Shown in pieces: positions 4,299 to 57,387 of a DNA stretch of 64,000 nt. Where the stretch lies: positions 23,510 to 87,509 of the forward strand of contig JAIPHP010000001.1 of assembly GCA_021735165.1 (NCBI GenBank). The letters run 5' to 3'. Under the pieces are notes generated by a model, which was not told the origin of the DNA, did not search any database, and saw only the letters and a list, made by a program, of their open reading frames with translations. Each line of letters starts with the position of its first letter. The stretch's first letter is position 1. Source of the DNA: Candidatus Woesearchaeota archaeon. GTDB taxonomy: Archaea; Nanobdellota; Nanobdellia; Woesearchaeales; 21-14-0-10-32-9. The translations under genes and the position numbers were made by a program.

Positions 4299-5341
4299 AA
4301 AAAAACCCATTAAAACAAAAAACAAATTTCCTAGCAGACTTTGGAAAATCACTAGTTCCAAAAAAATTTAGACCAAATCTAAGAACATATTTAGCAAAAG
4401 CAGGACATCCAGACGTACCATATTCATACTTTGGAATATTATTCTTTTTAGGAATAGGACTAACAGCCCTAATATACTTCCTTTCAGGATTTGCAACCGA
4501 ACTACAAAACAGACAAATAATACTACAAGGAATATTCTCATTCCTATTTTGGGTAATAACAGCAACAATAATTGTTACAATAATCATGGCAGGATACTAC
4601 TTCAAAACCAACATGAAAATATACAAAAGAACAAAAGAACTAGAATCAAATCTCCCAGAATACTTAGTACTAGTAAGCACAAATCTAAAAGGAGGATTAA
4701 GCTTTGAAAAAAGTCTATGGAACGCAATAAAACCAGAATTTGGAATCTTAGCAGAAGAAATGGGCATAATAAGCAAAAAAGTAATGACAGGACAAGACTT
4801 AACAGATGCCCTTTTAGAACTAGCACAAAAATATGAATCCCCAACAATGAGAAGAACAATAGACATAATACTTGGAGAAATACAATCAGGAGGACAAGTA
4901 GCGCACGTACTAGACCAAATAATAGAAAATCTAAGAAAAACAAAAATAATACAAGAAGAAATGGCTGCAAACACACTACTATTCACAATATTTATAGCAG
5001 CAATAGTCACAGTAATAAGCCCACTGCTCTTCGCACTAGCAAAAGTGCTTTTGAGCATATTAATACAAGTAAGCAAACAAGTAGCACCTGCAGTAGCACA
5101 AAGCAGAGGAGCTGGAGGATTCAAAATAAAAGAAATAACCCTATCACTAGACGCATTTAGAAACTTTTCATTGGCAGCATTATTCATAATATCGACAAGT
5201 GCAAGCATGATACTTAGCATAATACAAAAAGGAGATATAAAAGCAGGACTAAAATACATACCCTTCTTCATAGCAATAGCATTCACACTATACTTCATAT
5301 TCAGTTTAGCTCTAGGAAGCTTCTTCACACTAGGATTCTAA
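4292..5341 (+). CDS. TadC/FlaJ-like pilus platform membrane protein, C-terminal T2SS-F domain half
   Basis: second T2SS-F-like domain (LPEYLVLVSTNLKGGLSFEKSLWNAI...QSGGQVAHVLDQI) plus TM helices; together with 3390-4199 gives about 618 aa, typical of a single FlaJ/TadC. Confidence 0.8.
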   Translation: MKQKNPLKQKTNFLADFGKSLVPKKFRPNLRTYLAKAGHPDVPYSYFGILFFLGIGLTALIYFLSGFATELQNRQIILQGIFSFLFWVITATIIVTIIMAGYYFKTNMKIYKRTKELESNLPEYLVLVSTNLKGGLSFEKSLWNAIKPEFGILAEEMGIISKKVMTGQDLTDALLELAQKYESPTMRRTIDIILGEIQSGGQVAHVLDQIIENLRKTKIIQEEMAANTLLFTIFIAAIVTVISPLLFALAKVLLSILIQVSKQVAPAVAQSRGAGGFKIKEITLSLDAFRNFSLAALFIISTSASMILSIIQKGDIKAGLKYIPFFIAIAFTLYFIFSLALGSFFTLGF

Positions 5342-5491
5342 GTTTACATTCCTAAACTAACAACTAGTATCAAAAAACAAAAGAATCCTGACAACACATT
5401 AAACAAACAACATTTCAAAAAAACACTCATAGAAACATTAATATCCAAAACAAACTACAAAACATTGCAGACATAAAAGAAAAAATCAAAA

Positions 5492-5550
5492 AGCTCCCTG
5501 GTCTTTCGTAAGGGGGGAGGGTGGTTGCAGAAAAGAATCCGCAGGGAGCT
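5492..5550. terminator. 9-bp inverted repeat AGCTCCCTG/CAGGGAGCT with 41-nt G-rich loop (GGGGGGAGGGTGG) between convergent genes
   Basis: read directly; GC-rich island in AT-rich intergenic DNA; function as terminator is a guess. Confidence 0.3.
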
Positions 5551-5564
5551 CATGACAATGAAAC

Positions 5565-5990
5565 TTATAATTTCTTGAATGAAAATGATCTAGGAGGTCT
5601 TCTAATTTCTTGAAGCCATAACAAACCAATTTTCATCATATTCTTATTGAAATTCTCTGAAATCTTGTAAGTTTTCTTATACAAATCGTAATCTATAATA
5701 CCCATAGTTTTCATGGGAGTTAGGATCCTATCGTAAAATTGTCGTTTATTATATGATATGGGCACAGGTTTCTTCTTTATAGGATTCCTAGGATCAGGGT
5801 CCTCGGGAGCCACAAGCGTACCATCGTGAAGAGCTGTGGCAAATAAAGACATCTCAGTTTTGCCAATCTCACCGTCTTTTAACTTCATCTCCTCTATAAG
5901 CATTTGAGCAACAACAACCTGCTGTTTAGTACTAAATATAATCTCAAAAATGCTTTCTGGCATATTGTATTGATCAAAAAGTATTACCAT
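5565..5990 (-). CDS. hypothetical protein
   Basis: ORF only. Confidence 0.4.
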   Translation of the reverse strand: MVILFDQYNMPESIFEIIFSTKQQVVVAQMLIEEMKLKDGEIGKTEMSLFATALHDGTLVAPEDPDPRNPIKKKPVPISYNKRQFYDRILTPMKTMGIIDYDLYKKTYKISENFNKNMMKIGLLWLQEIRRPPRSFSFKKL

Positions 5991-6079: not shown

Positions 6080-7174
6080 TTATTTATTAGCATATTTAAT
6101 ATAAATTCTTTTAAGGCTCCTAAAAATACAAATATACCTAAACCCAAATTTAAAAAGCATAAAAGATTTCCACGACAACCCCCTAAGCCTGTAAAAAGGC
6201 CTTAAAAATAAAAACTTGACAAACCCAGAAAAATAAATCGCATCCTTAGTATATGCACCAACACCGTTTGTTCCTCTCTTTGCACGCACAACATAATGAA
6301 ACACAAGATCCAAATCATTACAAAATTTTTTAGTTTTCCTAAAAACAGTCTCAAAATCAAATCTTTCAGCATAATAAACAGCTAAATATTTAAGAGCAGA
6401 ACTATACAAGGTGTCAAACAAAAAACTTTTTCTGAACTCATAATAAGTAGCAAGTCCTTCCTCGAGCTCATCATAAAATGCTAAACCGACAGAAAAAATT
6501 TCAAGACTTTTCTTACCCTCCTGAAACCTTCTGACATGAACACCCACTTCATGATAAAGCAAACTTATAACATCATCAACAACATATCTATCTTTTTTTC
6601 TAATATAAATCTTCATTTCAACTTTAGAAATTCTTGCATCACCAACCATATCGCTAGAAATTTCAACAGACCAACCAGACATATTATTAGAATTAAGATA
6701 AGAATAAAACACACTAAGCATCTCGTTCTCATTCAAAAACATCTTTTTTCTTTTTCTAAAAATCAAACCATTTAAACAAACAAACTTAGCCAACAAAAAA
6801 AACACAAAATTCGTATGACCATAAATTTTTAAAGAATAATTCTTAAAATCTTCTAAAGAAATATTATGAATTAAATTAATTAAAAATTCCAATTCTGAAA
6901 TTTTTTCAGAATAAATAAAATAAAAATCTTCATTCTTAAAAAAAGATAATTCTTCTTTAAGACTTATTAATTCAGATTCGCAGTCAGTGAGGTCACTACG
7001 AGAATACTCAAAAAAGTTTTCCGGTAAACAAAAATCATTCTTAAAAAAAAAATTCTTCTTATCATCAAAATAATTTAATTTAAAATATTCATATTCTTCA
7101 TCCAAACCATATTTGTAAATAAAATCACAAAATTTTTTATCAAATTCCTTTACATCAATTTTTTTTTGACTCAT
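6080..7174 (-). CDS. DUF1704-family HExxH zinc metallopeptidase (QEGLA-motif family; tyrosine/phenylalanine carboxypeptidase-like)
   Basis: LLYHEVGVHVRRFQEG (HExxH) followed by DELEEGLATYYEF (QEGLA-like motif); last gene of operon with two amidoligases, overlapping upstream gene by 20 bp. Confidence 0.7.
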   Translation of the reverse strand: MSQKKIDVKEFDKKFCDFIYKYGLDEEYEYFKLNYFDDKKNFFFKNDFCLPENFFEYSRSDLTDCESELISLKEELSFFKNEDFYFIYSEKISELEFLINLIHNISLEDFKNYSLKIYGHTNFVFFLLAKFVCLNGLIFRKRKKMFLNENEMLSVFYSYLNSNNMSGWSVEISSDMVGDARISKVEMKIYIRKKDRYVVDDVISLLYHEVGVHVRRFQEGKKSLEIFSVGLAFYDELEEGLATYYEFRKSFLFDTLYSSALKYLAVYYAERFDFETVFRKTKKFCNDLDLVFHYVVRAKRGTNGVGAYTKDAIYFSGFVKFLFLRPFYRLRGLSWKSFMLFKFGFRYICIFRSLKRIYIKYANK

Positions 7175-8036
7175 ACAAATCCATCAAATTGTCATGAAAT
7201 TTTTCTAAAACATCATACGCCTCCACATTCAAAGGCTTAACTATACTCGTACAACCAGGTGCAGAAGTATTAACTTCTATTAAATGATTTGATAAAATAT
7301 CAAGTCCTGCAAAATAAACACCCATATTTTTTAATTTTTTAGCCACAGCACATACAATAAACTCTTCTTTTGACGATAAAGGAAGATTAGCATAATTGCC
7401 TCCTGAAGAAATATTATTAACATATGTATTTTTATTTACTCTCCCTATACTGCCAAGAACATCACCGTTAAAAACAATAACCCTTTTATCACCATCATTT
7501 TCAATAAATTCTTCACATATATATCCTTGAGGATATTCTGAATGCATCACTAAATAATCTTTTAACTTTTCTTCCACAGGTTTAAACTTATCAAAAAAAA
7601 CAATTCCTTTCCCACCAGTACCCTCAATAGGCTTTATTATCAAATCTTTTTCTTTAGATAAGAATTTTTTTAAAGAACCAACATCATTATTTGAATAAAT
7701 AAAATGTTCTGGAAGATGCTCTTGAAAATAATTTGGCTCGAAAGTTTTAGGAGCAGACAACAAAACTTTGCTTGGAGGATTAATAAAAAAAATATCATTT
7801 TCAAAACGAGATAAATAAGAACTTAATTCTCTGTTAAAAGGATACATAAAATAAAACACAAAATCTTTTTTCTTTAGTTCGTCTAAATTAAGCGAATCAG
7901 GAGTATAAGAAACAACATTATGCCCTTTATCTTGTAAAAATTTAAAATGACCGTAATCTTCTATTTGATCTTCAGACTCCAATAACACATCATCCAATTT
8001 TTTTCTTAATATTAAACCTATATCCATATCAAACAC
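7155..8036 (-). CDS. ATP-grasp ligase (RimK / glutathione synthetase-like)
   Basis: IIKPIEGTGGKGIVF..., EEFIENDGDKRVIVFNGDVLGSIGR, GLDILSNHLIEVNTSAPG are typical ATP-grasp motifs. Confidence 0.85.
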   Translation of the reverse strand: MFDMDIGLILRKKLDDVLLESEDQIEDYGHFKFLQDKGHNVVSYTPDSLNLDELKKKDFVFYFMYPFNRELSSYLSRFENDIFFINPPSKVLLSAPKTFEPNYFQEHLPEHFIYSNNDVGSLKKFLSKEKDLIIKPIEGTGGKGIVFFDKFKPVEEKLKDYLVMHSEYPQGYICEEFIENDGDKRVIVFNGDVLGSIGRVNKNTYVNNISSGGNYANLPLSSKEEFIVCAVAKKLKNMGVYFAGLDILSNHLIEVNTSAPGCTSIVKPLNVEAYDVLEKFHDNLMDLYESKKN

Positions 8037-9221
8037 TCACGAAATCAAAATTTTATTTTTATTCCAATCTTTTTTTATACTTTTAAAAACATTTTTCACA
8101 TATAAAGCCTTTTCTTTTTGAGACATATCAGAATACAATAAATTCTTTGAAATACTAGTTCTTTTAAGCAAATAATTTTTCTTCAAATAATCAGCAAAAA
8201 ACAATTCCTGGGAAGACATATCAGAACTGCAAAAATCAAAAACATTAACTGCCAAATCAAAAACATCATCTGATGATAAACCCTCCAACATAGCACTATT
8301 AGATAAATATTTTATTTTTTCAGAAGCAACATCTGTATTATCAGTACCTAAAAAATTTTCAAAAATATATTCATTTGATAAATTCAGTCTTTCAATTTTT
8401 CTTATTGAAGCAGAAGCTAAAGATATAAGACCAAAAATCAAATACAAATCAGGATTAGAGCCAAACCCCCTATACTCTATAGTTTTAAACTTCTTATTAA
8501 ATCTAACAGGTCCCCAAACAGATGAATATTTGTCCCCATACTTAACATAATCATCTCCATAAACAAGAGAAACCTCTCTAAAATCATTAAAACTTTTTTG
8601 TAAAAAATTTTCTAAAAAAATATAATCAGAAAAAACCCCTTGTAAATCCCCTTGATTTGGAAAATTATTGTAAAGAATTTTTCTATAAATAAAAGATCTC
8701 AAATTAAGTATTTCAAAATTATCAGAAAATTTGAAATCAGATTTTTTTGCTTTCCCAACAACAGGTGAAAATACAACGCCTAATGAATCGAATATATTAA
8801 GAAAATTATATAATCTTAAATTTGAATAATCTTCTTCTCTTTCATCAAAATGAAGATGAACCGCCATTATACTTCCAGATAAATAATACACTTCTTCACC
8901 AAGCATATTTTTTTTTAAATTATAATTTTGTTTATCCAATATTTCACTTTTAAAATTAAAATTAAAAGGATTGTCAATAGGTAAAAAATCATACCCTGAA
9001 TCATTTAACAAAATATCTAGTTTTTCTGTAAACTCACATAACTCATCAAAAACTTCAACTATATTTCCAGGAGTCCCTGAAAATTCTATTATTGATTTGC
9101 TGCAATCCAAGTGAAGAGGTAATCCATTTTCATTACAATAATTAACAATATTGACAGAATTATTTGAAGGATTAAAATCCTTATCTACCAGTAAAAATTC
9201 ATATTCTATACCAACATTCAT
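8037..9221 (-). CDS. GCS2-family carboxylate-amine ligase (YbdK / glutamate-cysteine ligase family 2)
   Basis: N-terminal VGIEYEFLLVD matches the GCS2 LGIELEMQVV signature; about 394 aa; abuts the ATP-grasp gene with no gap. Confidence 0.75.
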   Translation of the reverse strand: MNVGIEYEFLLVDKDFNPSNNSVNIVNYCNENGLPLHLDCSKSIIEFSGTPGNIVEVFDELCEFTEKLDILLNDSGYDFLPIDNPFNFNFKSEILDKQNYNLKKNMLGEEVYYLSGSIMAVHLHFDEREEDYSNLRLYNFLNIFDSLGVVFSPVVGKAKKSDFKFSDNFEILNLRSFIYRKILYNNFPNQGDLQGVFSDYIFLENFLQKSFNDFREVSLVYGDDYVKYGDKYSSVWGPVRFNKKFKTIEYRGFGSNPDLYLIFGLISLASASIRKIERLNLSNEYIFENFLGTDNTDVASEKIKYLSNSAMLEGLSSDDVFDLAVNVFDFCSSDMSSQELFFADYLKKNYLLKRTSISKNLLYSDMSQKEKALYVKNVFKSIKKDWNKNKILIS

Positions 9222-9440
9222 ATCTCAATCACTCTTTAATGTGTTAAATAACCCCAAAAAAAGGTTCGAATCAAAATAAAATACTACATTAATAAGCAAT
9301 AGTTGACAAACATAACTATATAAATCTTTCTAAACTAAAATAAACACATTAAAAGCATCAATAATAAGAAATAACTGGCATTAATCCATACTATTTCAAA
9401 AAGAAAGCTCAAATTAACCTAATTTTATTTCTGAAAAACC

Positions 9441-12454: not shown

Positions 12455-13420
12455 ATGAACTTAAAACTAGACAAAATCGATAAAAGAATATTATATGAAC
12501 TAGACAAAAATGCGAGAATACCAGATACAAAACTAGCAAGAATTGCAAAAAAAAGCAAAGAATCAATAAGATATAGAATAAAAAAATTACAAGAACAAAA
12601 CATAATAAAAGGATTTACAATTTGGGTAGATCCCACAAAACTCGGATATAATTCAGCAAAGATTTATCTAAAATTAGCAAACAAACCAGAAAAAAAGAAA
12701 GAAATGATTAACGAATTAAAAAAAGAAAAAAAATTATTTTGGCTTGGAACCGCCGATGGCGCATGGGATTTAGGACTAACATACTTTGTAAAAAACAACA
12801 GAGAATTCTATGAAACAAAAAATAAACTTTTTTCAAAATACAAAGACATAATAATAGAAACCCGCACAGCAGTACTTGTAAGCGTACACTACTCAAACAA
12901 AACATATTTTTATAACACCCAAAACGAATGGAACACAATTTTTGAAAAACAGGAAAACATAATTATTGAAGAAATAGAAAAGAAAATACTAAATGAACTA
13001 TTTCAAAACTCAAGAATAAACATAACAGAAATAGCAAGAAAACACAACAGCACAACAGACATAATAAGAAACAGAATAAAAAAATTAGAAAAACAAAAAA
13101 TAATATCAAGATACAACGCAATAATAGATCACAACAACCTCGGATATGAATTCTTTAAAACGTTTCTCTATTTCAAAAACTTAAGCCAGAAAGATGAAAC
13201 CAAATTAATGGAATATTCACTACAAAACGAAAAAATAATTCACCTCGTAAAACAAATAAGTCCTTGGGATGTAGAACTAGAAATAATGTGTGAAAACTAC
13301 TTAGAATACAACCAAATAATATCAGAACTAACACAAGAATTCGCAGAAGTAATAAATAAAATTGAAACTGCAATAATGCATGAAGACCACATATTTCCAA
13401 GCAAAAAAATAATATTTTAA
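12455..13420 (+). CDS. tandem Lrp/AsnC-family transcriptional regulator (two HTH-AsnC plus RAM-like units)
   Basis: two copies of the Lrp HTH pattern (DKIDKRILYELDKNARIPDTKLARIAK... and EKKILNELFQNSRINITEIARKH...) each followed by a small ligand-binding-like region. Confidence 0.7.
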   Translation: MNLKLDKIDKRILYELDKNARIPDTKLARIAKKSKESIRYRIKKLQEQNIIKGFTIWVDPTKLGYNSAKIYLKLANKPEKKKEMINELKKEKKLFWLGTADGAWDLGLTYFVKNNREFYETKNKLFSKYKDIIIETRTAVLVSVHYSNKTYFYNTQNEWNTIFEKQENIIIEEIEKKILNELFQNSRINITEIARKHNSTTDIIRNRIKKLEKQKIISRYNAIIDHNNLGYEFFKTFLYFKNLSQKDETKLMEYSLQNEKIIHLVKQISPWDVELEIMCENYLEYNQIISELTQEFAEVINKIETAIMHEDHIFPSKKIIF

Positions 13421-14475: not shown

Positions 14476-14859
14476 ATGGGAAGAAAAAATAGAAATACAA
14501 AACAAAAAGAAAAAATACAAAAAGAAATAGCAAAAATAAACTCTTTTTTTAGCGCAGAAGAACTATATGAAAAAACGAAAAAGAAAAGCCCGGAAATAGG
14601 AATCGCTACAATATATAGATACTTAAAAGAAGCAAAAGAAAAAGGAGAACTATACACATACTCTTGCGACAGAAAAAACATTTACTCAAAAGGAAAAAAA
14701 AGCCATTGTCATTTTGAATGCGAAAAAACAGGAAAAATAATACACTTTGAACTAGACAACATAGAATTTTTAAAAAACAAAATACCCGGAACAATAACAA
14801 GTTTTCAATTAGAAGTTAAAGGAATCTGCAAAAAATGCGAAATCCCTAAAAAAAATTAA
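14476..14859 (+). CDS. Fur-family metalloregulator (Zur-like)
   Basis: N-terminal winged-helix, C-terminal HCHFECEK...CKKCE metal-binding Cys/His pairs; divergent from the ZIP transporter. Confidence 0.7.
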   Translation: MGRKNRNTKQKEKIQKEIAKINSFFSAEELYEKTKKKSPEIGIATIYRYLKEAKEKGELYTYSCDRKNIYSKGKKSHCHFECEKTGKIIHFELDNIEFLKNKIPGTITSFQLEVKGICKKCEIPKKN

Positions 14860-16091
14860 CAACCACCACCACGATCCTCATCCTTAGAACCATCATCAAC
14901 ATTTTCCTTCCAAAAATCAATTTCATCCTCATCTTCATTAACAAAAATACCCTCTTCCTCGGCCAACATCTTATTATCTCGAGTTCTTTGTGCTCTAAGC
15001 TTCTTAGCCTCAACTTCATCTTTAATCTTTCTTCCGCTAAGACCAGTTTGAGGAGTTTTTCTCAAATAATCAATTGTTGTAAAATCAATTCCTGAATTTA
15101 TTAATTCATGCCATTTATTAAAATCAATCCAAGTCTTCCACATCCCATCAATCTTAAATTTCTTTTTAGCCAAAAAAACAACTCGTGAAGGAACATGCTC
15201 TGAAACAATTTCATAATCATCAAGACATTTAGCTAATTCCTTTGCAAAGTCTACAACTTCTTCGTGCCAAGGCATATTATCTTTCTTCAACCTCTCCATA
15301 GAAGCCCCAACAAACATATATCCTTTAACTTCCAAAAAATCAGGATCTCCCTGCTCTATCAACTTAGCATAATTTTCAGGCTCAACATCATTAACACCTT
15401 TCACAATAGTTAACCTAATACAAGTTCTGTCTTTTTTCTTTTTCAACTCATCCAAAGAACTAAGCATCCTCTCCCAATAATCGGAAAATAAAGGAACATC
15501 AATTTGTTTCAAAATATGTTTATTAGGAGCATCAATTGACAAATATAATTGAGTTACCGGATTCAAATCGCGAATCTGCTCCCAATACTGAGCATTAGTA
15601 ACTAAGAAAGTTGAAATGCCCTCTTTATTGAATATTTGCAAAAGCTCATTTATTTTTGGATAAATAATTGGCTCGCCAGTTAATGAAAGCGCTACATGCT
15701 TAACTTTTCTAGCCTGCTCCATTACAGCTTTAGAAACAACAGGATTGCCATTAAACCCCTCAATCAAAGAATTATGCGCCTTAATAGAACCATTAAAAAT
15801 AAATTTAGGATCATTAACTTCCCACTTCCAATCCTTACTAACAGGAGCCTTATAATCCCTCCAACAAAACTGACAACGATTCGCACAACTAATGCTTGTC
15901 GTCATCTGCATACATTGATGACTCATTATTCCGTAGAACTTCAACTTATAACAGCCACCTTCTCCTTTCAACAACTTCTTAGTCCAACCACAAGTCTTAA
16001 CAGCACTGTGCGTGCCAACCATCCTATACTGTTGCTTTTCCATTCTTTCAATATCTAAAGGAGACATCATTGAATTTTCCATAACAAACAA
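14856..16091 (-). CDS. taw1: radical SAM tRNA 4-demethylwyosine synthase Taw1/TYW1
   Basis: CANRCQFCW radical-SAM cluster motif preceded by MSHQCMQMTT, overall TYW1 architecture; acidic C-terminal tail. Confidence 0.8.
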   Translation of the reverse strand: MFVMENSMMSPLDIERMEKQQYRMVGTHSAVKTCGWTKKLLKGEGGCYKLKFYGIMSHQCMQMTTSISCANRCQFCWRDYKAPVSKDWKWEVNDPKFIFNGSIKAHNSLIEGFNGNPVVSKAVMEQARKVKHVALSLTGEPIIYPKINELLQIFNKEGISTFLVTNAQYWEQIRDLNPVTQLYLSIDAPNKHILKQIDVPLFSDYWERMLSSLDELKKKKDRTCIRLTIVKGVNDVEPENYAKLIEQGDPDFLEVKGYMFVGASMERLKKDNMPWHEEVVDFAKELAKCLDDYEIVSEHVPSRVVFLAKKKFKIDGMWKTWIDFNKWHELINSGIDFTTIDYLRKTPQTGLSGRKIKDEVEAKKLRAQRTRDNKMLAEEEGIFVNEDEDEIDFWKENVDDGSKDEDRGGGC

Positions 16092-17197: not shown

Positions 17198-17719
17198 ATG
17201 AGCTTAAAACAAGATACAAAACAACTGTTCGTTGATTATTACAAAGCTTACGATCCGGAAAATGGAGAAGAAAAAGCAAACAAAATCATAAAACAAGGAA
17301 AAAACATCAGCGATGCAGTAAATCAAAAAGCTTTTGATATGATATTTACACCAACAGGATTCTTTGTTGGAGGTTATATTGCTCTAACCGTAGCTGCAAA
17401 CGCAATTTACATACCAATTCAAACAGGAATAGAACTTCTTCAAACAAGAGACGTAAAAACGATAAATGCAAAATTAACAGAACTCAAACACTTCAAAACA
17501 GGCAGAGTCGGAGACGTATACACAGGAGAATTCACAACAGAAAACGGTCAAAAAATAGTATTATACGATCAACCTCAATTCTTTGAAGGTAAACTCTGGG
17601 GAAACAACAAACTATCAAAACTAGAAGAAGGAAAAGAATACACAGTAAAAATTTCTAAGAACAATTATGCTGGAATTTTTGAAATGAATAATCTCTTAGA
17701 CGCAAAAAAAACAAATTAA
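17198..17719 (+). CDS. hypothetical protein
   Basis: ORF only. Confidence 0.4.
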   Translation: MSLKQDTKQLFVDYYKAYDPENGEEKANKIIKQGKNISDAVNQKAFDMIFTPTGFFVGGYIALTVAANAIYIPIQTGIELLQTRDVKTINAKLTELKHFKTGRVGDVYTGEFTTENGQKIVLYDQPQFFEGKLWGNNKLSKLEEGKEYTVKISKNNYAGIFEMNNLLDAKKTN

Positions 17720-17743
17720 ACCCCCTTTGCTAGCGCGCAATAA
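17719..17743 (+). repeat. 3'-end fragment of the PATE-like repeat family (AACCCCCTTTGCTAGCGCGCAATAA)
   Basis: matches the conserved 3' terminus of the elements at 20150, 26495 and 45897. Confidence 0.6.
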
Positions 17744-17991
17744 CAAATATTCTCGTAGATGGTTATTTGTAGTATCAAACAGAAACCTACAAGCAAAATA
17801 CAAAAAATATGGCTTGACCACCCAAAGAAAACAAGTGTTAAAAACAATAGAAAAATTGCTAGAAAACACGCACCCAAAAAAACTGAGTGTAAATTCAGTT
17901 TTCACGGCTAAAAAAATGCTTAATAAGTCACAAAAATAAGTCGCTGTATATAACATACACTATGTAACAAATAAGAGGGTATTGACTAACA

Positions 17992-18765
17992 TTAATTCTT
18001 TTTTAATTTGTCTTTTTCAACTTTAAACTTAAAATGTAAGCTAAGTGTTTGCATAACTTCTTGAAAACTAACTTCTTCAACCAAGAGAGGAAGCATATCT
18101 TCATTCCAACGCTTATGCAAAGTCTTCGCTTTATTAAACATCTTCAAGATGCTAGGGTCATCACCAGACTCCTTGCATTTTTTCTTAACTAATTTCATGT
18201 TTATGGGTAGTTTATGTTTAATGATTTGATAAATATCATAATGATCTCTAGGTTTATTCCTACCAATTGCAGCAGCAACTTTTTCAGCAACCATCTCCTC
18301 GCGGTTCAGACAAGGGAAACTAAACTTGGGGATGTTTGGATAAAAATGTTTCATTTCTAACATTTCTGGTTTTAAAAATAATTTGCCTCTTGCATTAAGA
18401 TCGATAAAGATTTGATCATCCCCAAGAATTGATTTGTAAGGAACAACTAATCTGACAAACTTATCAACATCTTTATCTTGAGTAATTGTTCCGAATAATT
18501 TAGATTCAGCAATAATTTTCTCTACTTCTGTTCGAACTTCTTTCAAAGGTCGTTCAAGAGTAAAATCAATATCTTCACTAATACGAGCATGATCTAAAAG
18601 AGTCAACTGCAAAGCAGTACCTCCTTTAAAATAAATTCCGCTAATATCTTTCATTAAGTAAAGCAGGATTGTGATGTAGTAATCTTTGACCAATAGATCA
18701 TAGTCAAACCCAGTTTTAGCAATGATTTCAAGTAATTCATCTTTTCTTATTTCTTTGACATCCAT
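17992..18765 (-). CDS. AbiEii/DUF1814 nucleotidyltransferase toxin (type IV TA / abortive infection)
   Basis: GIYFKGGTALQLTLLDHARISEDIDF is the hallmark nucleotidyltransferase motif of the AbiEii family. Confidence 0.75.
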   Translation of the reverse strand: MDVKEIRKDELLEIIAKTGFDYDLLVKDYYITILLYLMKDISGIYFKGGTALQLTLLDHARISEDIDFTLERPLKEVRTEVEKIIAESKLFGTITQDKDVDKFVRLVVPYKSILGDDQIFIDLNARGKLFLKPEMLEMKHFYPNIPKFSFPCLNREEMVAEKVAAAIGRNKPRDHYDIYQIIKHKLPINMKLVKKKCKESGDDPSILKMFNKAKTLHKRWNEDMLPLLVEEVSFQEVMQTLSLHFKFKVEKDKLKKN

Positions 18766-19244
18766 TTTTCTGATTCAACCTTTTTTAGGATTATAAAAGA
18801 GTGTCCGTCAATCTTTTTTTTGACTCCTTTTTTTAGAGCTTCTGCTCTGATTCTGTGAAAGACATATCTTTTATTCATTATTTTTGTTTTCCCATATTTG
18901 TTTGGCGAATATATGTCTACTTGCATAGGGACTTGGTCTGTAAGTTTCCAGTATTTTGCGGCATACCAACCGCCGATATAGTAATCTTCTCCATTCATTA
19001 TTTCATCAGCGACTATTAGAGGATTATCTGTCCACACATTATGTCTTGCTTTTATGGGTACAAGGAAGTATTTATCTTTGTTTAGCTTAATAATCCGGAA
19101 ATTTTTTCTTTGGTTGTAAATAAAATCATATAGTTGTTTCTCATTATCAAAGTGATTTCTAATATCATCTTTTGTAAAATAATACTTCTCTTGAAATTCA
19201 AGGTCTGAAATGACCCTTACCGCTCGTTCTGAAAGTCTAACCAT
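18747..19244 (-). CDS. AbiEi-like antitoxin/transcriptional regulator
   Basis: small upstream partner overlapping the toxin by 19 bp, classic AbiEi-AbiEii arrangement; weak sequence evidence alone. Confidence 0.55.
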   Translation of the reverse strand: MVRLSERAVRVISDLEFQEKYYFTKDDIRNHFDNEKQLYDFIYNQRKNFRIIKLNKDKYFLVPIKARHNVWTDNPLIVADEIMNGEDYYIGGWYAAKYWKLTDQVPMQVDIYSPNKYGKTKIMNKRYVFHRIRAEALKKGVKKKIDGHSFIILKKVESEKWMSKK

Positions 19245-19280
19245 TTTTGCATCACTAAATATTGTTTATATTCGAAATAA

Positions 19281-20249
19281 ATGAGGCAAATAATATTTAA
19301 ATATTGTGGTTTTAAAGCCCCGATGTATTTGCTTGCAGAGAATTTTCCTCATGGCACATGGTTTACTGCTAATTCTGAAGAACACTCAGGTTTTGGAGAA
19401 TTTCAAGGAAAAAAAGATTATTATGTCATTACAATTCATGGTGGAAAAGAAGGTATAGGAATTCTAAGTCCTGATGTTATTGCCAGAGCGTATAATACTG
19501 AAGGCGGAATTACACCAGTATACAAAGCCAATCTTTCAAAAGTATTTTCAAATAAAAATGTTATTGGAGATTTACTTCAAGGAGGATTGCCTGATGGTTC
19601 AACCATACAAACGTTTAGCTTTGATCAAATGGTTGCTAGAGAAACGCCTAAAGAATTTTCTAGATATGCAGTTGTAAGAACATTAGATCAAGCAAAGAAA
19701 ACCAATTCTTGCTACCAAAATATTGATGGTAATCTATTAAATAATGGCGGGGTGGCTATTGATTCGCAAGTTATTGCATATCTTGATGGTGTTGATGAAG
19801 CTACGAAATTTCTTGGAAACGTAAAAGCAAAATTTCCAAATGGAAAATTAGGTGTTTGGAACTCTTTTAATTCAGATAATTATGATCCTGATGTTGCTCA
19901 GGGCGTTGTGCTCTTCTTGGGCAACATTGGTAACGCTGGTCTCCTCAGCGGCAATCTTCTTAATGATTATGGTCGCTTTGTCGTGGTAAGCGACGAAGTC
20001 GCTAATGTTAGCGCTGAAGGCGCGAACGCGCACAAAAAAGAGAGTTTAGAAGGAAGAATAAGCTTCACTGAAGGAGATTCTTTTACTGTTGGCGGATTCA
20101 AGTATGAAATGCATAGCGGTATCTATTTAGCTTCACCAATACAAAATAATAAAAATCGCTGCTCCGAAGCTATCTCCACCCTGAAGGATGGAGTATTACG
20201 CTTCAGTCGCCTAGACGCGATTTTTAGATTGCTTGTTATCGCGACCTAA
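19281..20249 (+). CDS. hypothetical protein, locally GC-richer; last about 33 codons are encoded by an inserted repeat element
   Basis: ORF; C-terminal NRCSEAISTLKDGVLRFSRLDAIFRLLVIAT is translated from the PATE-like copy at 20150-20288. Confidence 0.4.
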   Translation: MRQIIFKYCGFKAPMYLLAENFPHGTWFTANSEEHSGFGEFQGKKDYYVITIHGGKEGIGILSPDVIARAYNTEGGITPVYKANLSKVFSNKNVIGDLLQGGLPDGSTIQTFSFDQMVARETPKEFSRYAVVRTLDQAKKTNSCYQNIDGNLLNNGGVAIDSQVIAYLDGVDEATKFLGNVKAKFPNGKLGVWNSFNSDNYDPDVAQGVVLFLGNIGNAGLLSGNLLNDYGRFVVVSDEVANVSAEGANAHKKESLEGRISFTEGDSFTVGGFKYEMHSGIYLASPIQNNKNRCSEAISTLKDGVLRFSRLDAIFRLLVIAT

Positions 20250-20288
20250 AGGTCGGGGTATTAAACCCCTCGCGCTAACGCGCAATAA
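20150..20288 (+). mobile_element. PATE/MITE-like non-autonomous element, 139-bp copy
   Basis: ends TAAAAATCGCTGCTCCGAAG... and ...CCCCTCGCGCTAACGCGCAATAA shared with copies at 26495 and 45897; inserted 3' of ATAA and ends in ATAA. Confidence 0.7.
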
Positions 20289-20411
20289 ATAATTTTTTAT
20301 ACTTCTTATTTTCTTGTATTTGTTGTCCCGGTTGCTTCATCGATCTGATGAAGTTAAATGAAGTAGCTTGGAACTACACGTCATTTCACTACGACGATTT
20401 AATCGTTATAA

Positions 20412-20425
20412 TGAAAATCGCTGCT
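20412..20425 (+). repeat. solo 5'-end fragment of the PATE-like element (TGAAAATCGCTGCT)
   Basis: matches the 5' terminus of the family, preceded by ATAA. Confidence 0.45.
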
Positions 20426-20429
20426 TATA

Positions 20430-21557
20430 TTATTCATAAATAAATTTGGTTAGATTATCAGAGGACTTCATCTCATATATTTTGCGTTTGAAAACATCTA
20501 ATTTTTTAGAAAACTTATCTTTATCATAAAAATTTTTCGAATAATGCTGATTAAATTCTGCAAGATGAACTATTGGTTCGAGCTCTAAAGGTTTTTTCAA
20601 AACAAATTCATAACCTATTCTTTCAGTTTTTTGCGTGCGATTATTCTGCAACTTTTTTATAAACTTTTTAATATTTTTATCTTCATTCTTAATAGAATAA
20701 ACTCCTCGTTCCATCACATTAAATTGCCCATTAGAGCCAAACAAATTTTCTAAACCAAGAATATATGGATACGAATAAAATTTCATTAAAGCTTTAAGTT
20801 CGTCATTATGAAAAATAGCTGCAAAATCATATTTTAATTTTTCATCATTAACAACACTTTCAATTATTGATTCATACACATTATAAGTACTACTGCACAC
20901 CCCGCCAGTTCTTATGCCGCCAGTCTTAAAAAAGTCATTAATTTTAAAATTTGAATAGTCAACATATTTATCAACTTCATCTTTCAATTTTTTAGGAAGC
21001 GAATCAAAATTAGGCATAGAACTTAATTCTGCTACAGAAATAACAAACCTATTCTTAAAAAATGGTTCTGTTAAAAAATACTCAGAAAAATAAGAATTCA
21101 ACTTTTCATGATTTTTCAGCATAGACAACCATTCACTTTTAGACCGTCGCCAATTTGAAAAAGCCACCTGTTTAAAATTCATCGGCAAAACTAAATCAAT
21201 ATGATTTAAAGATTCAGAAAAATAATCAACATAATAATCCTTAGACCAAGAACTGCCAAGATTCAAAAGATAAGACTCAAAATACGAATAATTTTTAGAA
21301 AAATAATCTTTTAACAAAGGCAAAATCAATGTCGCATCAAATTCACTAACAGAGTTATCCCTTAAAATTCTAAAATGTCTACCTTTAGAACTTTCTATAT
21401 TTTCTGCCAAAGACTTAAAATGATCTAACCAACCTAACTTTTCAGGAAAATATTTTTTTAACAAATTCTCTGTACAATTAAAACTAACAGTATCCGTATC
21501 TTTTTCAGCAACATCTTTTAACAAATCCTTTGCACAATCAACACTACCAACAACCAT
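20430..21557 (-). CDS. hypothetical protein
   Basis: ORF only. Confidence 0.4.
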   Translation of the reverse strand: MVVGSVDCAKDLLKDVAEKDTDTVSFNCTENLLKKYFPEKLGWLDHFKSLAENIESSKGRHFRILRDNSVSEFDATLILPLLKDYFSKNYSYFESYLLNLGSSWSKDYYVDYFSESLNHIDLVLPMNFKQVAFSNWRRSKSEWLSMLKNHEKLNSYFSEYFLTEPFFKNRFVISVAELSSMPNFDSLPKKLKDEVDKYVDYSNFKINDFFKTGGIRTGGVCSSTYNVYESIIESVVNDEKLKYDFAAIFHNDELKALMKFYSYPYILGLENLFGSNGQFNVMERGVYSIKNEDKNIKKFIKKLQNNRTQKTERIGYEFVLKKPLELEPIVHLAEFNQHYSKNFYDKDKFSKKLDVFKRKIYEMKSSDNLTKFIYE

Positions 21558-21682
21558 ATCACTAAGTAATAGTGATTTATTTTAAAATGTATCTATGACA
21601 AAGCTAAAAAAACAATTTATTTACAATATAGACACTAAATAACAAGTAGTTTTAAAAAGCAACAACAATTACTTATAAATAA

Positions 21683-22099
21683 ATGCTAAACTTGCTGAAA
21701 CAAAAAACCAAAGTAATACTAGACACAAACTTCCTACTACTACCAGGCGAATTCGGAGTAGACATATTTACAGAAATAAAACGCATATCAACTGAACCAA
21801 TAGAAATATGCATTTTAGACAAAACAATGCAAGAATTAAAACTCATGATAGAAACTAAAGGCCAAAAAAAAGAAGGATTCAATGCAAAACTAGGATATAT
21901 AATGACAAAACAAAAAAACTTAAAAACACTCACAAGTTCCAAACATAACTACGCAGATGATGCTCTAGTAGAAATAGTGTCAAAAAACCCAAAAAAAACA
22001 ATAATAGCAACACAAGACAAAGAACTACAAAAAAGAATTCAAAATAAAAAAGGAAGAATAATAACACTTAAACAAAATAAATATCTCCAACTGAGGTGA
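21683..22099 (+). CDS. PIN-domain protein upstream of rpoE'
   Basis: VILDTNFLL start typical of PIN domains; conserved archaeal position before rpoE'. Confidence 0.55.
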   Translation: MLNLLKQKTKVILDTNFLLLPGEFGVDIFTEIKRISTEPIEICILDKTMQELKLMIETKGQKKEGFNAKLGYIMTKQKNLKTLTSSKHNYADDALVEIVSKNPKKTIIATQDKELQKRIQNKKGRIITLKQNKYLQLR

Positions 22100-24988: not shown

Positions 24989-25486
24989 ATGAAAGTCTAC
25001 ACAAAAGTTGGAGATAAAGGAACAACAAGAACATATTCAGGAAAAGAAATACCTAAAGACGACCCAATCATAATAATTGGAGGAAAAATAGACACCCTAC
25101 AGGCAAGTCTTGATTATGCAAAAATAGTTCTTTCAGATACAGAAATCATAGAAATTATTGAAGATGTTCAAAAGAAACTATGGCAAAGCGCAGGAGAAAT
25201 CAGCCAGGAAGGAACAGAAAAACTCAAAGAACCAATAACAGAAGAAAACATAACAACTCTAGAGCAGAACATAGATAAATACAACCAAAAAATAGACTTC
25301 TTCATCAGGTTCTCAAAAGAATCTTCCTGTAGATTAAACGAAGCAAGAATAAGAACAAGAGAACTCGAAATAACAATGACACAAAAGCATCTAGAAGGAA
25401 AGATACGTTCAGAAGTCTACAAATACATAAACCGGCTTTCTGACCTAATCTACGTCTTAGCTTGCAAAGAAGAGAAACAACAATAA
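24989..25486 (+). CDS. PduO-type ATP:cob(I)alamin adenosyltransferase family protein
   Basis: N-terminal MKVYTKVGDKGTT is the family signature; about 165 aa. Confidence 0.7.
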   Translation: MKVYTKVGDKGTTRTYSGKEIPKDDPIIIIGGKIDTLQASLDYAKIVLSDTEIIEIIEDVQKKLWQSAGEISQEGTEKLKEPITEENITTLEQNIDKYNQKIDFFIRFSKESSCRLNEARIRTRELEITMTQKHLEGKIRSEVYKYINRLSDLIYVLACKEEKQQ

Positions 25487-26337: not shown

Positions 26338-26494
26338 TAAAAAAGAAAATAAGACCTCCTTTATATATTTTTTTACTTGAAAGTAATAAAATATAAGAAG
26401 TGTTTTTCTTTAAACAATAACAAATAATCAAAAAATAACTTCTTCATACGCTTTACATAAGAAACCAGTGCAAGACTCAACGAAGCAAGAATAA

Positions 26495-26785
26495 TGAAAA
26501 TCGCTGCTCCGAGTCTGCTAAGAAACCAAAAATTTCTTGCACACAGAAATCAAAAAAAATTTCTTCGTGTATCTCCGCCCTAAATGCACAGAAACAAAGA
26601 TTCTGACACGACAAAAATCAAAGATTTTTGTGCAGGACGGAGTATTACGACTCAGTCGCTTATCGCGATTCACAAAAAACACAACAGCATTTCTGTGCGC
26701 TATAAACCAAATGTTTATACGCGCTCAGATTGCGTGCCATCGACCTAAAGGCCGGCATTAAACCCCTTCCGCTAGCGCGCAATAA
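26495..26785 (+). mobile_element. PATE/MITE-like non-autonomous element, longest (291-bp) copy with internal hairpins
   Basis: 5' TGAAAATCGCTGCTCCGAGTCTGCTAAGAAAC, 3' AAACCCCTTCCGCTAGCGCGCAATAA; internal palindromes such as GCGCTATAAAC...GTTTATACGCGC; inserted exactly 3' of AGAATAA inside a duplicated fragment of the PduO-like gene. Confidence 0.75.
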
Positions 26786-26900
26786 GAACAAGAGAATTCG
26801 AAATAGCACTAGCATCAATGTTTCGAGAAAACAAGCTCATCAGAAGTATACAAATACATAACCGATTATCAGACTTAATCTACGTTTTAGCGCGCAATAA
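26786..26900 (+). pseudogene. degenerate duplicate of the 3' end of the PduO-like gene (compare 25352-25470), ending in another PATE 3'-end fragment (26889-26900)
   Basis: about 80% nucleotide identity to 25352-25470 by eye; the matching left flank 26479-26494 equals 25336-25351. Confidence 0.55.
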
Positions 26901-27533: not shown

Positions 27534-28253
27534 ATGAACAACCAAAGCCCAATAATAACTTCTATAAAGAACATAGCTGAAGTAAAAGCAATAGATGAAA
27601 AATTCAACGAACTAAGCAAAAAAGAAAATATAATTAAAAAATCAAGAAGAGACCTAATAGAAAACCTAAACAAAACACACGACAATATAAACATAACATA
27701 CAACCAAGTAGAAGACTTCGTAAATGACGTAGCAAACACATATTTCAGAATACAAAAACTCGATGAGCACTACAAAGAACAGAAAGGATTTAGCATACAC
27801 AACGCCAAAAAAAGCAAAATAATCTCACTAGACGACATAAAACAAATACATGAACTCGAAAAAGCAGAGATAATTGATGAAAGATACACCGGAATATTAG
27901 AAAAAAGCTTAGTATACAGCAATTTCAAAAAAGAACAATACTTAGCAACAGACATCATTTTCGAAAAAAATCCACAAACCTCACCATTTTTATCTACAAC
28001 GGGCATAAGCGCAGCGTTCATAATAGGAGGAATAATACAAGGAGATCCTAGACTAATCTATGGAGGCATAGCAATAGCACCTGCAACAATAGCAATATTT
28101 GGATTAATAACATACAATCTTACCCCGAAAAATAATTTCGACACCTTAACAAAGAAAATCAAGAAAAACACAATAGAAAAAACAAAAGAGTTTAACTCTT
28201 ATCTTTCTAAAAATATAAACCCTGAAGAATATTTCAGGACAGGTAGTTATTGA
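27534..28253 (+). CDS. hypothetical protein with C-terminal TM helices
   Basis: ORF only. Confidence 0.4.
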   Translation: MNNQSPIITSIKNIAEVKAIDEKFNELSKKENIIKKSRRDLIENLNKTHDNINITYNQVEDFVNDVANTYFRIQKLDEHYKEQKGFSIHNAKKSKIISLDDIKQIHELEKAEIIDERYTGILEKSLVYSNFKKEQYLATDIIFEKNPQTSPFLSTTGISAAFIIGGIIQGDPRLIYGGIAIAPATIAIFGLITYNLTPKNNFDTLTKKIKKNTIEKTKEFNSYLSKNINPEEYFRTGSY

Positions 28254-28283
28254 AAAGAAACAATGGAAAAATTCAGAAAAGAG

Positions 28284-28613
28284 TTAAACAACAACCTTCA
28301 TTTTCTTAAGCTTTCTTTCAAAAGCATCAAAAAACTCATCCCCCTCATCCAAAAAAACCCTTCTATCTCTTTCCGATTCATTCATTTTAGAAACACTATT
28401 TTGATAAGCATTCCTAGCACCATCATAAAAATAATACGAAGAGCCCTTCTTCATTATGTGTGTTGAAGGAACATTTCTCGTTATAGTCCCCATCTTTTTT
28501 TTATATTCCAAAACAGCATTACAATCATTCTCATGAGCATATTTTTTCATATCATTTAGTAAAATGTACAACTCTTTTAACTGAGAATCATTCAATACAT
28601 CTTCATCAACCAT
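28284..28613 (-). CDS. hypothetical protein
   Basis: ORF only. Confidence 0.3.
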   Translation of the reverse strand: MVDEDVLNDSQLKELYILLNDMKKYAHENDCNAVLEYKKKMGTITRNVPSTHIMKKGSSYYFYDGARNAYQNSVSKMNESERDRRVFLDEGDEFFDAFERKLKKMKVVV

Positions 28614-28826: not shown

Positions 28827-29864
28827 TTATCTTACAATTTCAATTCCTAGTTCGGAACTTAAATGAGCCCTAGCAGCTTCTGCTTGCTTAGCACTTTGTT
28901 TGCCTAAAATCCATGGAGATTTAACACCAGTAATTATAGTCATAACAGTCAATTTGCCCTTCATATCATCTGTGACACGTGCGCCCCAAATAACATTAGC
29001 ATCTTCATCCATAGATTCTGTTACGAGTTCTCCAATTTTATTGATTTCATCCAGAGTCATATCATTTCCGCCATGAACTTGAATAATTGCTCCTGAAGCT
29101 CCCTGATAACTTATATCAAGCAAAGGATTGCTCAAAGCACCTTTAACTGCTTCTTCAACCCTATTAGCCGTATCTGAAGCGCCAACTCCAATAGCTGCAA
29201 CATCTCCATTAGTCATTATTGCCTTAACATCAGCATAATCTAAGTTTACAAGTGAAGGCACCGCTATTGTTTCAACAATTCCTTTAATCATTGTAGCAAT
29301 TAATTCATTAGCTACAGCAAATGCTTGTTGAACCGGCAAATTACCTGCAATTTGAACCAATCTATTATTATCGATAACAATAACAGTATCTGATTGTTTT
29401 CTTAGCATTTGAAGACCAAATTCTGCTTTATCAACTCTAGCCCTCTCAATCTTGAAAGGCATAGTAACTGTGCCTATAACTATAGCACCCATATCTTTTG
29501 CAACTTGTGCTACAACCGGAGCTGAACCTGTTCCTGTTCCTCCTCCCATTCCTGCACATACAAATACCATGTCTGCACCTTTTAAAGATTCTTTTAATTG
29601 AGACATACTCTCCTGAGCTGCTTCTGCACCCTTTTCAGGATAACCGCCAGCGCCAAGACCTCTTGTAACATCTTTACCAATCAGAATTTTCTTATCAGCT
29701 TCTACAACATTTAAATGTTGTTGATCAGTGTTACATGCAAGGATTTCTGCTCCTTGAATACCTTTCATGTAGAGCCAGTTTGTCATATTACATCCTGCTC
29801 CACCCATTCCGACAACTTTTATATTTGCCTGTCCAACATCAATTTGTTCAAATTCTCCGCTCAT
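28827..29864 (-). CDS. ftsZ: cell division GTPase FtsZ
   Basis: [12 protein letters not shown] and [13 protein letters not shown] tubulin/FtsZ signatures, N-terminal GTPase plus C-terminal domain. Confidence 0.95.
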
Positions 29865-35939: not shown

Positions 35940-36078
35940 AAGGCGTGTCCCAAATCTTTCTTTTTCTTATTGCAAAGTATTGTTAGCTGCTTCGCAGTCT
36001 AAGTTTCACTAAGAAACACAGATCTTTAACGTGTTCCGCGTTGTGTTTCTCTCAATTGAGCTTTAGAGCAATACAGAT
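35940..36078 (+). repeat. left copy of an approximately 140-bp inverted repeat pair
   Basis: reverse complement matches 40897-41037 with a 70-bp perfect core (AAAGTATTGTTAGCTGCTTCGCAGTCTAAGTTTCACTAAGAAACACAGATCTTTAACGTGTTCC). Confidence 0.85.
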
Positions 36079-36143
36079 GTTAGTGACACGCTCCACAAAA
36101 AAAAACAAATAACACACAAAAAACAACGTCATAAACAAAAAAC

Positions 36144-57341: not shown

Positions 57342-57387
57342 AATGGTTTTTAAGAGTTCTTTAAGGTCGCTGATTAGGGGCGCCGTC

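Follow-up and report, generated by a model that had tools for sequence, protein, structure and literature searches.

The described systems closest to the locus analysed here, positions 17722-21607 of a 64-kb stretch of DNA (the window) from a Candidatus Woesearchaeota metagenome-assembled genome (MAG), are the AbiE toxin-antitoxin (TA) modules, the variable protein AvpA of an archaeal diversity-generating retroelement (DGR), and the palindrome-associated transposable elements (PATEs). The AbiE toxin AbiEii of S. agalactiae is no longer toxic and no longer binds GTP when the motifs hG[G/S]x15DhD, K...R and D are mutated (Dy et al. 2014, PMC3985639), and the MenAT systems of M. tuberculosis are named beside AbiE as close known systems. 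AvpA is the variable protein of a Nanoarchaeota DGR (PDB ID 5IOO; Handa et al. 2016, PMC5006420). Its beta1 strand pairs with beta5, the DNA for its disordered 46-residue tail holds a putative DGR hairpin, and AvpA relatives without DGRs have been reported in Woesearchaeota genomes (PMC5006420). PATEs, known from Haloquadratum walsbyi (PMC3119063) and Geobacillus (PMC10055086), derive from IS200/IS605 (IS1341-type) elements and are non-autonomous. They are heterogeneous and have no inverted termini but similar near-terminal palindromes, their conserved terminal oligonucleotide is the actual target, and deletions of the core leave terminal-only copies of ~50 bp (PMC3119063). PATEs are said to make no target duplication.

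The components of the locus all belong to known kinds. We think it probable that 17722-21607 is a lineage-specific, decaying accessory slot of a member of the Woesearchaeota (DPANN archaea), which lies between ORF173 and the PIN-rpoE' operon and holds an AbiE operon, a relic AvpA-like gene, the open reading frame (ORF) ORF375 and PATE-like repeats, and that it contains no island bounded by a mobile element. The slot would have accumulated accessory genes; where it meets the AbiE operon, the AvpA-like gene would have been cut short at its 5' end, and it would also have taken a repeat insertion two codons before its stop, while further repeat copies in the slot would have been reduced to stubs. 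What the data show is the anatomy of the locus, its homologies, the target motif, the conserved folding of the repeat and the lack of the block in a relative; this order of events, the transposition chemistry of the repeat and any activity of the slot genes we infer.

A variable slot between conserved flanks

A contig of a related lineage (L016, JAIPHZ01) shares its gene order with the window, from Tyw1 and ORF173 through the PIN-rpoE' cluster and further on, at a DNA identity of 71-78%. The homology ends at 17721, in the stop codon of ORF173, and restarts at 21608. The non-homologous stretch between these points measures 3.9 kb in the window and contains two solo ends (stubs) of the repeat, the abiE pair, a 322-aa ORF with an inserted repeat (copy B), and ORF375. 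On the left side, a Tyw1-type radical-SAM gene (14856-16091) and then two hypothetical genes precede the slot, and ORF173 (17198-17719, plus strand) forms the conserved flank; its single homolog (P0008), from a related Woesearchaeota lineage, is 63% identical over the full length. On the right side, the promoter region and PIN_9 gene (21608-22099, plus strand) share 78% DNA identity with L016 from 21608 on, and the PIN_9-rpoE'-spt4-S24e-S27ae cluster begins at 21683 (Pfam labels).

The slot of L016 is 1.4 kb long and has two genes unrelated to the slot genes of the window; the 262-aa and 86-aa products show no similarity to ORF375, which rejects them as its orthologs. Because the relative carries two unrelated genes in this place, the slot is a replacement hotspot and not a case of clean presence and absence. 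A reading made earlier from the sequence alone (hereafter, the sequence-only reading) had proposed a block with the AbiE pair and the 322-aa ORF, to be compared with relatives for its presence or absence. The block is indeed absent from L016, but the variable region is larger than was proposed, reaches ~1.2 kb past the right edge given there, includes ORF375, and is occupied by other genes in the relative.

The repeat sites named in that reading are all present. The solo 3' end on the left (17715-17743, plus strand; 29 nt, nhmmer E=1.3e-5) supplies with its TAA the stop codon of ORF173. The full minimal copy B lies at 20150-20288 (plus strand), or 20146-20288 with the ATAA target at 20146-20149. 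The solo 5' end on the right (20408-20425, plus strand; ATAATGAAAATCGCTGCT) is an exact 18-nt match and lies 4 bp from the stop of the convergent ORF375. A 248-bp non-coding spacer (17744-17991), which has no counterpart in L016, follows the left stub, and its sole match is a chance-level RuvC hit for an internal 70-aa ORF. The 119-bp spacer between copy B and the right stub (20289-20407) is presumed to be native downstream DNA of the AvpA-like gene, and Rfam gave only sub-threshold noise for it (RT-16, 20.3 bits, E=0.88).

Both solo ends look like deletion stubs. L016 has no repeat at the site of the left stub, and since ORF173 is full length compared with its ortholog, which rules out a truncation of ORF173 by the stub, the left stub is best explained as a copy that inserted at the ORF173 stop and lost its core later. 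A deletion between the target TAA and the TAA of ...ATTAAACCCC would yield the left-stub sequence as it is seen. The proposal that insertions remodel protein C-termini applies once, to the 322-aa ORF; ORF173 has the stub on its stop codon, but its protein is full length.

The sequence-only reading saw the repeat ends as the boundaries of an island whose cargo they had captured or rearranged, and the corresponding explanation is that they are the termini of a composite unit moving the AbiE pair and the 322-aa gene as one block of 2.4-2.7 kb. The left edge of the non-homology does fall within a few bases of the 3'-end stub, three repeat sites occur in 2.7 kb versus three in the other ~60 kb, and the block is missing from L016. 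However, the order from left to right is 3' end, cargo, full copy B, 5' end, all on the plus strand, which is the reverse of a cargo-carrying element. In a composite element, ends in functional polarity would bracket exactly the variable DNA, whereas here the variable DNA runs to 21607 and not to 20425, with no repeat end at that edge. With a similarity of only 78%, the left stub and copy B's 3' end are not fresh products of recombination. Copy B itself represents a simple insertion, flanked by ATAA of its own and with a stop codon that can be restored, and among the dozens of copies in the fetched loci no similar cargo-bearing copy occurs, the extracted complete copies measuring 141-298 bp. 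The AvpA-like gene is 5'-truncated at the AbiE junction without a displaced fragment, which points to deletion and replacement rather than clean capture. Nothing shows that the repeat ends captured cargo, and we regard a composite unit as very unlikely; the clustering of three repeat sites in a junk-tolerant slot is enough to explain the arrangement.

The adjacency of the AbiE/AvpA block and ORF375 might also be unreal, a mis-join of the assembly at repeat copies. Two independent Logan contigs (L001 and L021) reach the two junctions of copy B and both break inside it, so that the MAG assembly alone spans this copy; Logan contigs likewise stop in copy A, and many metagenome contigs end in the repeat. 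Against this stand the two junction sequences, which L001 and L021 reproduce independently, the length of copy B (143 bp), which reads of 150 nt can span, its differences from the other copies, and the synteny of the flanking genes with the relative on both sides. We therefore consider a mis-join highly improbable, the least probable of the explanations weighed here.

A PATE-like repeat family

The window has six sites of the repeat: copy B, the two stubs, copy A, copy C and a partial copy on the minus strand. The 3' motif AAACCCC....GCTAGCGCGCAATAA occurs at 17718-17743, 20263-20288, 26760-26785 and 45930-45955, and the 5' motif AAAATCGCTGCTCCGA at 20152, 20414 (truncated), 26497 and 45899, all on the plus strand; shuffled sequences are expected to contain 0 and 0.38 occurrences, respectively. 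Copy A (26491-26785, plus strand) is a long copy of 295 bp, whereas copy C (45893-45955, plus strand) is a terminal-only copy of 63 bp that stands head to head with the partial copy (45743-45855, minus strand), 37 bp away and with the variant 5' end ATAAAGAAAATGTG. Among 185,579 species-representative genomes the 3' motif is found in only one related MAG (JAIPET01, 7 sites), and a scan of metagenomes of the Joint Genome Institute (JGI) yielded 39 contigs with the repeat from three data sets. The family is lineage-restricted and numbers dozens of copies in two lineages of Woesearchaeota MAGs and in three metagenomes.

Complete copies range from 141 to ~300 bp and differ in length by whole hairpin modules in their loops, while the shortest copies overall have 63 bp. 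None of the copies (63-298 bp) has coding capacity, and they are too short for a transposase. Stubs with only the 5' end and copies with internal deletions occur beside remnants with only the 3' end. The termini of the repeat are not inverted repeats, only TG being common to the 5' end TGAAAATCGCTGC and the reverse-complemented 3' end TGCGCGCTAGC. A miniature inverted-repeat transposable element (MITE) related to DDE transposons is thus ruled out, only the dinucleotides TG...CA matching between the termini.

All 40 listed 5' ends start with ATAA; the scan behind this number kept only ends that start so, but unfiltered scans and extractions show the same start. Complete copies terminate in ...GCGCAATAA, so that ATAA stands on both sides. 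The clearest empty site comes from copy A, which lies at an ATAA within the second of two genes for PduO-type cob(I)alamin adenosyltransferases, a pseudogene fragment (26424-26897) that the copy splits and that also contains an in-frame stop (FIRFT*ETSARLNEAR). The filled site reads AGA-ATAA-[element]-ATAA-GAAC, whereas the intact paralog (24989-25486; Pfam ID PF01923) carries the empty site AGAATAAGAAC with a single ATAA. For copy B, the expected empty-site or excision junction is ...CAAAATAA joined directly to ATAATTTT. At two tandem junctions (L007 and L055), GCGCAATAA|TGAAAATC, neighbouring copies share one ATAA, as expected if an element ending in ATAA itself serves as a target.

At 7 of the 40 ends, the ATAA includes the TAA stop of an upstream ORF with the same orientation, and a further 5 ends follow such a stop within 30 nt. 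Since ATAA contains TAA, surviving copies accumulate at or just after stop codons. Other copies are found inside a pseudogene or antisense or convergent to genes. In the relative lineage, a repeat (L016 16782-16903, the same as L006 2318-2439) lies 5 nt after the stop of a gene whose ortholog in the window (27534-28253) has none in the following DNA (28253-28330); this difference is consistent with mobility, though the downstream flanks have diverged.

The minimal unit is predicted to fold into two hairpin domains, each closed by a stem that reaches almost to the end of the element and each centred on a similar hairpin of the form stem - TAAA/TGAA - stem - GTATTA. The left-end hairpin CTCCGCCC-TAAA-GGACGGAG-TATTA cross-matches the right-end CGACC-TAAA-GGTCG..GTATTA in nhmmer. 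The RNA fold of copy B has -51.8 kcal/mol and a z-score of -5.5 against shuffles, and a second z-score for the minimal unit is -5.2. In an alignment of 13 copies, 93.9% of the cells pair, compared with 32-44% when the partners are slid; 11 pairs change on both sides, a level reached in 2 of 500 shuffles, and the covariation score is reached in none of 500. A set of seven copies gives the same pairing picture. The compensatory changes fall in 7 helices across the whole unit, and subfamilies swap AAAATCGC/GCGATTTT for AAAATCCC/GGGATTTT, AAAATTGC/GCAATTTT or AAAACGTG/CACGTTTT.

By comparison with the described elements, the repeat is most likely PATE-like in its behaviour, a non-autonomous element of the IS200/IS605 type. 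It is a real multi-copy element, in agreement with the PATE-like ends of the sequence-only reading. As in PATEs, the termini are not inverted repeats, the length leaves no room for a protein, and the near-terminal palindromes are alike. The short conserved terminal oligonucleotide ATAA would serve as the target, members of the family are heterogeneous and their internal segments modular, and loss of the core has left end stubs and terminal-only copies of ~60 bp. A Y1 transposase supplied in trans would mobilise the repeat as single-stranded DNA, with insertion 3' of ATAA. We hold this single-strand mechanism only tentatively, as a possibility of somewhat less than even weight.

Several observations weigh against it. 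No IS200/IS605 TnpA or TnpB domain (Y1_Tnp, OrfB) and no reverse transcriptase domain (RVT) was found by Pfam among ~47 scanned ORFs of the window, which include those of at least 300 aa except 12455-13420 and 28827-29864, these two being covered by the Pfam labels of their L016 orthologs only. Likewise, there is no IS200/IS605 transposase beside the solo ends in the related MAG (~53 kb covered) or in the ORFs adjoining the solo ends of the metagenome contigs, so that, unlike PATEs, the repeat has no cognate IS200/IS605 element or transposase with matching ends in the scanned ORFs. The ATAA on both sides fits insertion 3' of ATAA but equally well a 4-bp target-site duplication, another difference from PATEs. 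Furthermore, the whole 140 nt, and not just two hairpins as in PATEs, keep their pairing by compensatory changes; this variation beyond two transposase-binding hairpins may be a sign that an RNA, or else an extended fold of single-stranded DNA, is under selection. A further difference from PATEs is that the hosts are DPANN archaea and not haloarchaea or bacteria.

Repetitive extragenic palindromic (REP) sequences are linked to IS200/IS605-like Y1 transposases, and each consists of one palindrome of 20-40 nt headed by GTAG. The repeat resembles REPs and bacterial interspersed mosaic elements (BIMEs), with their REP-associated tyrosine transposases (RAYTs), as well as MITE-type repeats of 3' regions, in being short, structured, multi-copy and concentrated just after stop codons. 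It differs from REPs in its length of at least 140 nt, its two multi-helix domains and its precise ATAA flanks, which are like those of a discrete insertion.

These features raise the question of whether the repeat is instead a structured RNA module, of the 3' untranslated region (UTR) or terminator type as in REP/BIME, or is copied from RNA by a reverse transcriptase, its spread reflecting RNA function or retro-mobility. The compensatory changes in 7 helices and the strongly negative fold z-scores would suit such a module, as would the 12 of 40 copies that coincide with or closely follow the stop of a gene in the same orientation, the several remnants that keep only the 3' end (17715-17743; L043) and the missing transposase. 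The genome also carries a DGR-type target gene, so the lineage may have a reverse transcriptase. Yet truncation is not 3'-biased, as 5'-only stubs and internal-deletion copies exist, and copies also occur in pseudogene, antisense and convergent contexts. DNA-level processes can keep palindromes pairing without an RNA function, and the scanned window ORFs include no reverse transcriptase. The repeat has no Rfam match even at permissive thresholds: at gathering thresholds the whole window gave 0 matches, and for copies A and B permissive settings returned nothing beyond noise (sub-threshold snoRNA and miRNA hits; RT-16, E=0.88). ARAGORN detected no tRNA or tmRNA in the window, and these negatives together exclude that the repeat belongs to a known RNA family or is a split tRNA or an att site derived from a tRNA. 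We judge an RNA module of this kind unlikely. A stronger version is still less probable, with a slim chance at most, namely an undescribed archaeal mobile or functional RNA module whose whole two-domain fold is selected, which homes to ATAA stops without a linked transposase and creates new protein tails by occasional read-through. It would spread, for example, through RNA copying by a DGR-type reverse transcriptase, or would be a 3'-UTR element exploited by the host.

An AvpA-like gene with a repeat-encoded tail

The 322-aa ORF (19281-20249, plus strand; native part 19281-20149) is identical to the hypothetical protein K9L97_00270 of a Candidatus Woesearchaeota MAG, encoded on a contig of 99,322 bp. 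Direct family searches (Pfam, NCBIfam and PADLOC) do not yield any match. The ORF has five homologs with 39-49% identity, and a profile search extends the family to 313 cluster representatives. The family profiles match one solved structure, which is AvpA (PDB ID 5IOO:A): the match has E=1.3e-37 for a profile of 51 sequences, 2.9e-14 for 6 sequences and 0.0032 for the single sequence. According to these profiles, the ORF is an AvpA-like protein with a C-type lectin fold and belongs to the archaeal family of DGR variable proteins. The sequence-only reading had not recognised this affiliation or the missing 5' end. The profile homology extends across the domain and includes equivalents of the AvpA motifs GxxVVVxxH, HPxxxPFxG and RFxGV.

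The AvpA variable region (residues 181-203) aligns to G208-Y230 of the ORF, with F185 corresponding to F212 and RFVGV to RFVVV. This segment, together with the RFVVV strand that would be the equivalent of the initiation of mutagenic homing (IMH) site, is encoded at 19902-19988 (plus strand). Residues 214-234 are encoded by 21 consecutive NNY codons, whereas the longest runs in nine neighbouring genes are 3-9, and the adenine fraction of the NNY segment is 0.17 compared with 0.345 in the rest of the ORF. The run and the adenine depletion are what adenine-directed mutagenesis of AAY codons would leave. Directly 3' of the variable region lies a perfect hairpin, AGCGAC-GAA-GTCGCT (19989-20003, plus strand). 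One homolog (P0002) has GCGGC-GAA-GCCGC at the same place, with a different stem and the same loop; the hairpin is missing from two other homologs, and the fold z-score of the wider region is only -1.7. As in AvpA, an internal variable region of seemingly AAY-derived codons is followed by a long, probably disordered tail, and the hairpin in the tail DNA may correspond to that of AvpA.

The window is AT-rich (mean GC 0.309), and the native part of the ORF, with a GC content of 0.369, falls in the top 3.5% of equally long segments, in agreement with the GC-richer ORF of the sequence-only reading. Its GC content at third codon positions (0.236) is like that of its neighbours (0.21-0.30), which rules out foreign codon usage; the variable region and hairpin segment account for the GC richness.

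The ORF begins at about profile position 34 and is without positions 1-33, which align to beta1 and alpha1 of AvpA. A stop codon stands directly upstream, and only 36 bp (19245-19280) separate the divergent starts of abiEi and the ORF. The window contains no displaced 5' fragment with the missing ~33 N-terminal codons, and an insertion of AbiE into an intact AvpA-like gene is ruled out, as these codons have no counterpart in the window. In addition, a template-like repeat is present neither in the window nor in the fetched loci, and no reverse transcriptase is among the scanned window ORFs. Because of the lost codons and these two negatives the gene is an orphan or relic DGR target, differing from AvpA in lacking the N-terminal beta1/alpha1 and, within the window, the template repeat and reverse transcriptase, and resembling the AvpA-like proteins of Woesearchaeota in having no adjacent DGR in the window.

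It might nevertheless still be an active target, served in trans by a template repeat and a reverse transcriptase elsewhere in the genome. The marks of a variable region (NNY run, adenine depletion, RFVVV strand, GAA-loop hairpin) are preserved throughout, the reading frame stays open over 322 codons, and the window covers 64 kb of a 99-kb contig of an incomplete MAG. On the other hand, the missing codons include the beta1 strand that pairs with beta5 in AvpA, the search for a template and a reverse transcriptase was negative within its scope, and L001, the only independent Logan contig over this stretch, shows no difference in the variable region. With Woesearchaeota AvpA relatives without DGRs on record (PMC5006420), we find continued activity as a target doubtful and give it little weight.

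At its 3' end the ORF enters the repeat at about codon 290, and its last ~32-33 codons (~290-322) and stop are encoded by copy B, as the sequence-only reading had recognised with 33 codons. The empty-site reconstruction confirms this, since removing the repeat plus one ATAA restores ...ASPIQNK-stop. Copy B would have landed two codons before the native stop and replaced K-stop with a tail of ~32 residues, so that, unlike in AvpA, the tail is lengthened by what is probably a mobile element. In an AlphaFold model based on the alignment of 51 sequences, the residue blocks 11-220 have a predicted local distance difference test (pLDDT) score of at least 90 and blocks 221-240 of 82-88, whereas residues 251-264 and 277-322 stay below 50. 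The added ~32 residues therefore probably extend a region that is disordered anyway, as it is in AvpA.

A TTTATATT box lies at 19262-19269, between abiEi and the AvpA-like ORF. Transcription of the remnant may begin within its annotated 5' part, and translation would then, if it is expressed, start from Met15. The homologs of the ORF are found on bacterial-looking contigs, one set of them beside ParE-type pairs; their neighbourhoods include neither an adjacent AbiE gene nor a reverse transcriptase. One bacterial-looking contig (L014) has two AvpA-like paralogs (4857-5822 and 8515-9405) that flank a gene for a Ski2-like DEAD/DSHCT helicase; no reverse transcriptase is nearby, and neither paralog has the GAA-loop hairpin after RFVxV.

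An AbiE operon and an orphan gene

The genes abiEii (17992-18765) and abiEi (18747-19244) are both on the minus strand and overlap by 19 bp (18747-18765), as follows from the ORF coordinates. The assignment to AbiE, which had been proposed from the translations, is borne out by searches with hidden Markov models. AbiEii matches its Pfam family (Pfam ID PF08843) with E=6e-30 and 105 bits, compared with a cutoff of 22.5, and the PADLOC AbiEii model with E=1e-36 over nearly the full model. The 165-aa AbiEi matches the PADLOC AbiEi model with E=4.5e-16 at profile positions 2-139 of 252. Motifs I-IV are found in the AbiEii translation as G48G49-x15-D65-I-D67, R61, K162...R169 and D174, which correspond to G49/G50, D67/D69, R63, K173/R180 and D192 in PMC3985639. 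Searches of the PDB with the AbiE proteins gave no matches, and a search for further repeats on either side of the pair found none.

By homology, the operon is a type IV TA or abortive-infection module, and, apparently intact, it looks functional by sequence. AbiEii would be a GTP-binding nucleotidyltransferase toxin, and AbiEi would be a winged-helix autorepressor and antitoxin. The similarity to the described AbiE system (Dy et al. 2014, PMC3985639) includes the bicistronic arrangement with the antitoxin gene upstream of and overlapping the toxin gene, the DUF1814 domain of the toxin, and motifs I-IV at the expected spacing. The differences are that the host is an archaeon and that AbiEi, with 165 aa, matches only the first ~140 positions of ~250-residue models. 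The toxin-neutralising C-terminal domain of the S. agalactiae protein may be reduced in this AbiEi.

ORF375 (20430-21557, minus strand), inside the variable slot, is an orphan gene, with no homolog besides itself among 5.8 billion proteins and no significant family match in profile searches including Pfam, NCBIfam and PADLOC.

Besides the points concerning the repeat, the reading of the slot as a whole has to be weighed against three others. The slot comparison rests on one relative lineage and gives no polarity of gains and losses. AbiEi is short, and it has no Pfam, NCBIfam or PDB match, its support coming from the PADLOC models. A Foldseek search of the AlphaFold model of the 322-aa ORF against the PDB returned neither AvpA nor any lectin fold, a further difference from AvpA, so that the assignment to the lectin fold rests on the sequence profiles.

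Other features of the window

Away from the slot, a pair of 134-nt inverted repeats (35955-36088 and 40887-41020), which are 90% complementary, brackets 4.8 kb with a NurA-like gene, two unannotated ORFs and a gene for a PQQ-type beta-propeller; a KaiC-like ATPase gene lies just outside. A second repeat family, unrelated to the PATE-like one, is located at 52560-52618, 55919-55977, 58777-58881, 57387-57563 and 60904-61080. It includes 59-nt units with CGGGCGGGGCTAT...GAGTCTCACGTCTTT and a 177-nt pair of 81% identity, in surroundings with TrmB-like regulators, two Fic/DOC genes and an AAA_14/DUF4143 ATPase. Paralogs with a MATCAP domain (microtubule-associated tyrosine carboxypeptidase; Pfam ID PF08014) are encoded at 6080-8036 and 47022-48107, one of them adjoining an ATP-grasp gene (GSH-S_ATP/RimK-like), an unusual pairing for an archaeon.

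Implications

The case shows the turnover of accessory DNA in small DPANN genomes, as a single slot contains a defence-type TA pair, a decaying gene for a hypervariable receptor, an orphan gene and an interleaved repeat. The orphan AvpA-like gene is an added case of a DGR target stranded without its retroelement. The repeat illustrates neatly how insertion at a motif with an embedded stop codon places it at the 3' ends of genes and occasionally leads to a rewritten protein tail. Its mobilising enzyme, if found, would extend the biology of PATEs and IS200/IS605 elements, and possibly that of TnpB guide RNAs, to DPANN archaea.

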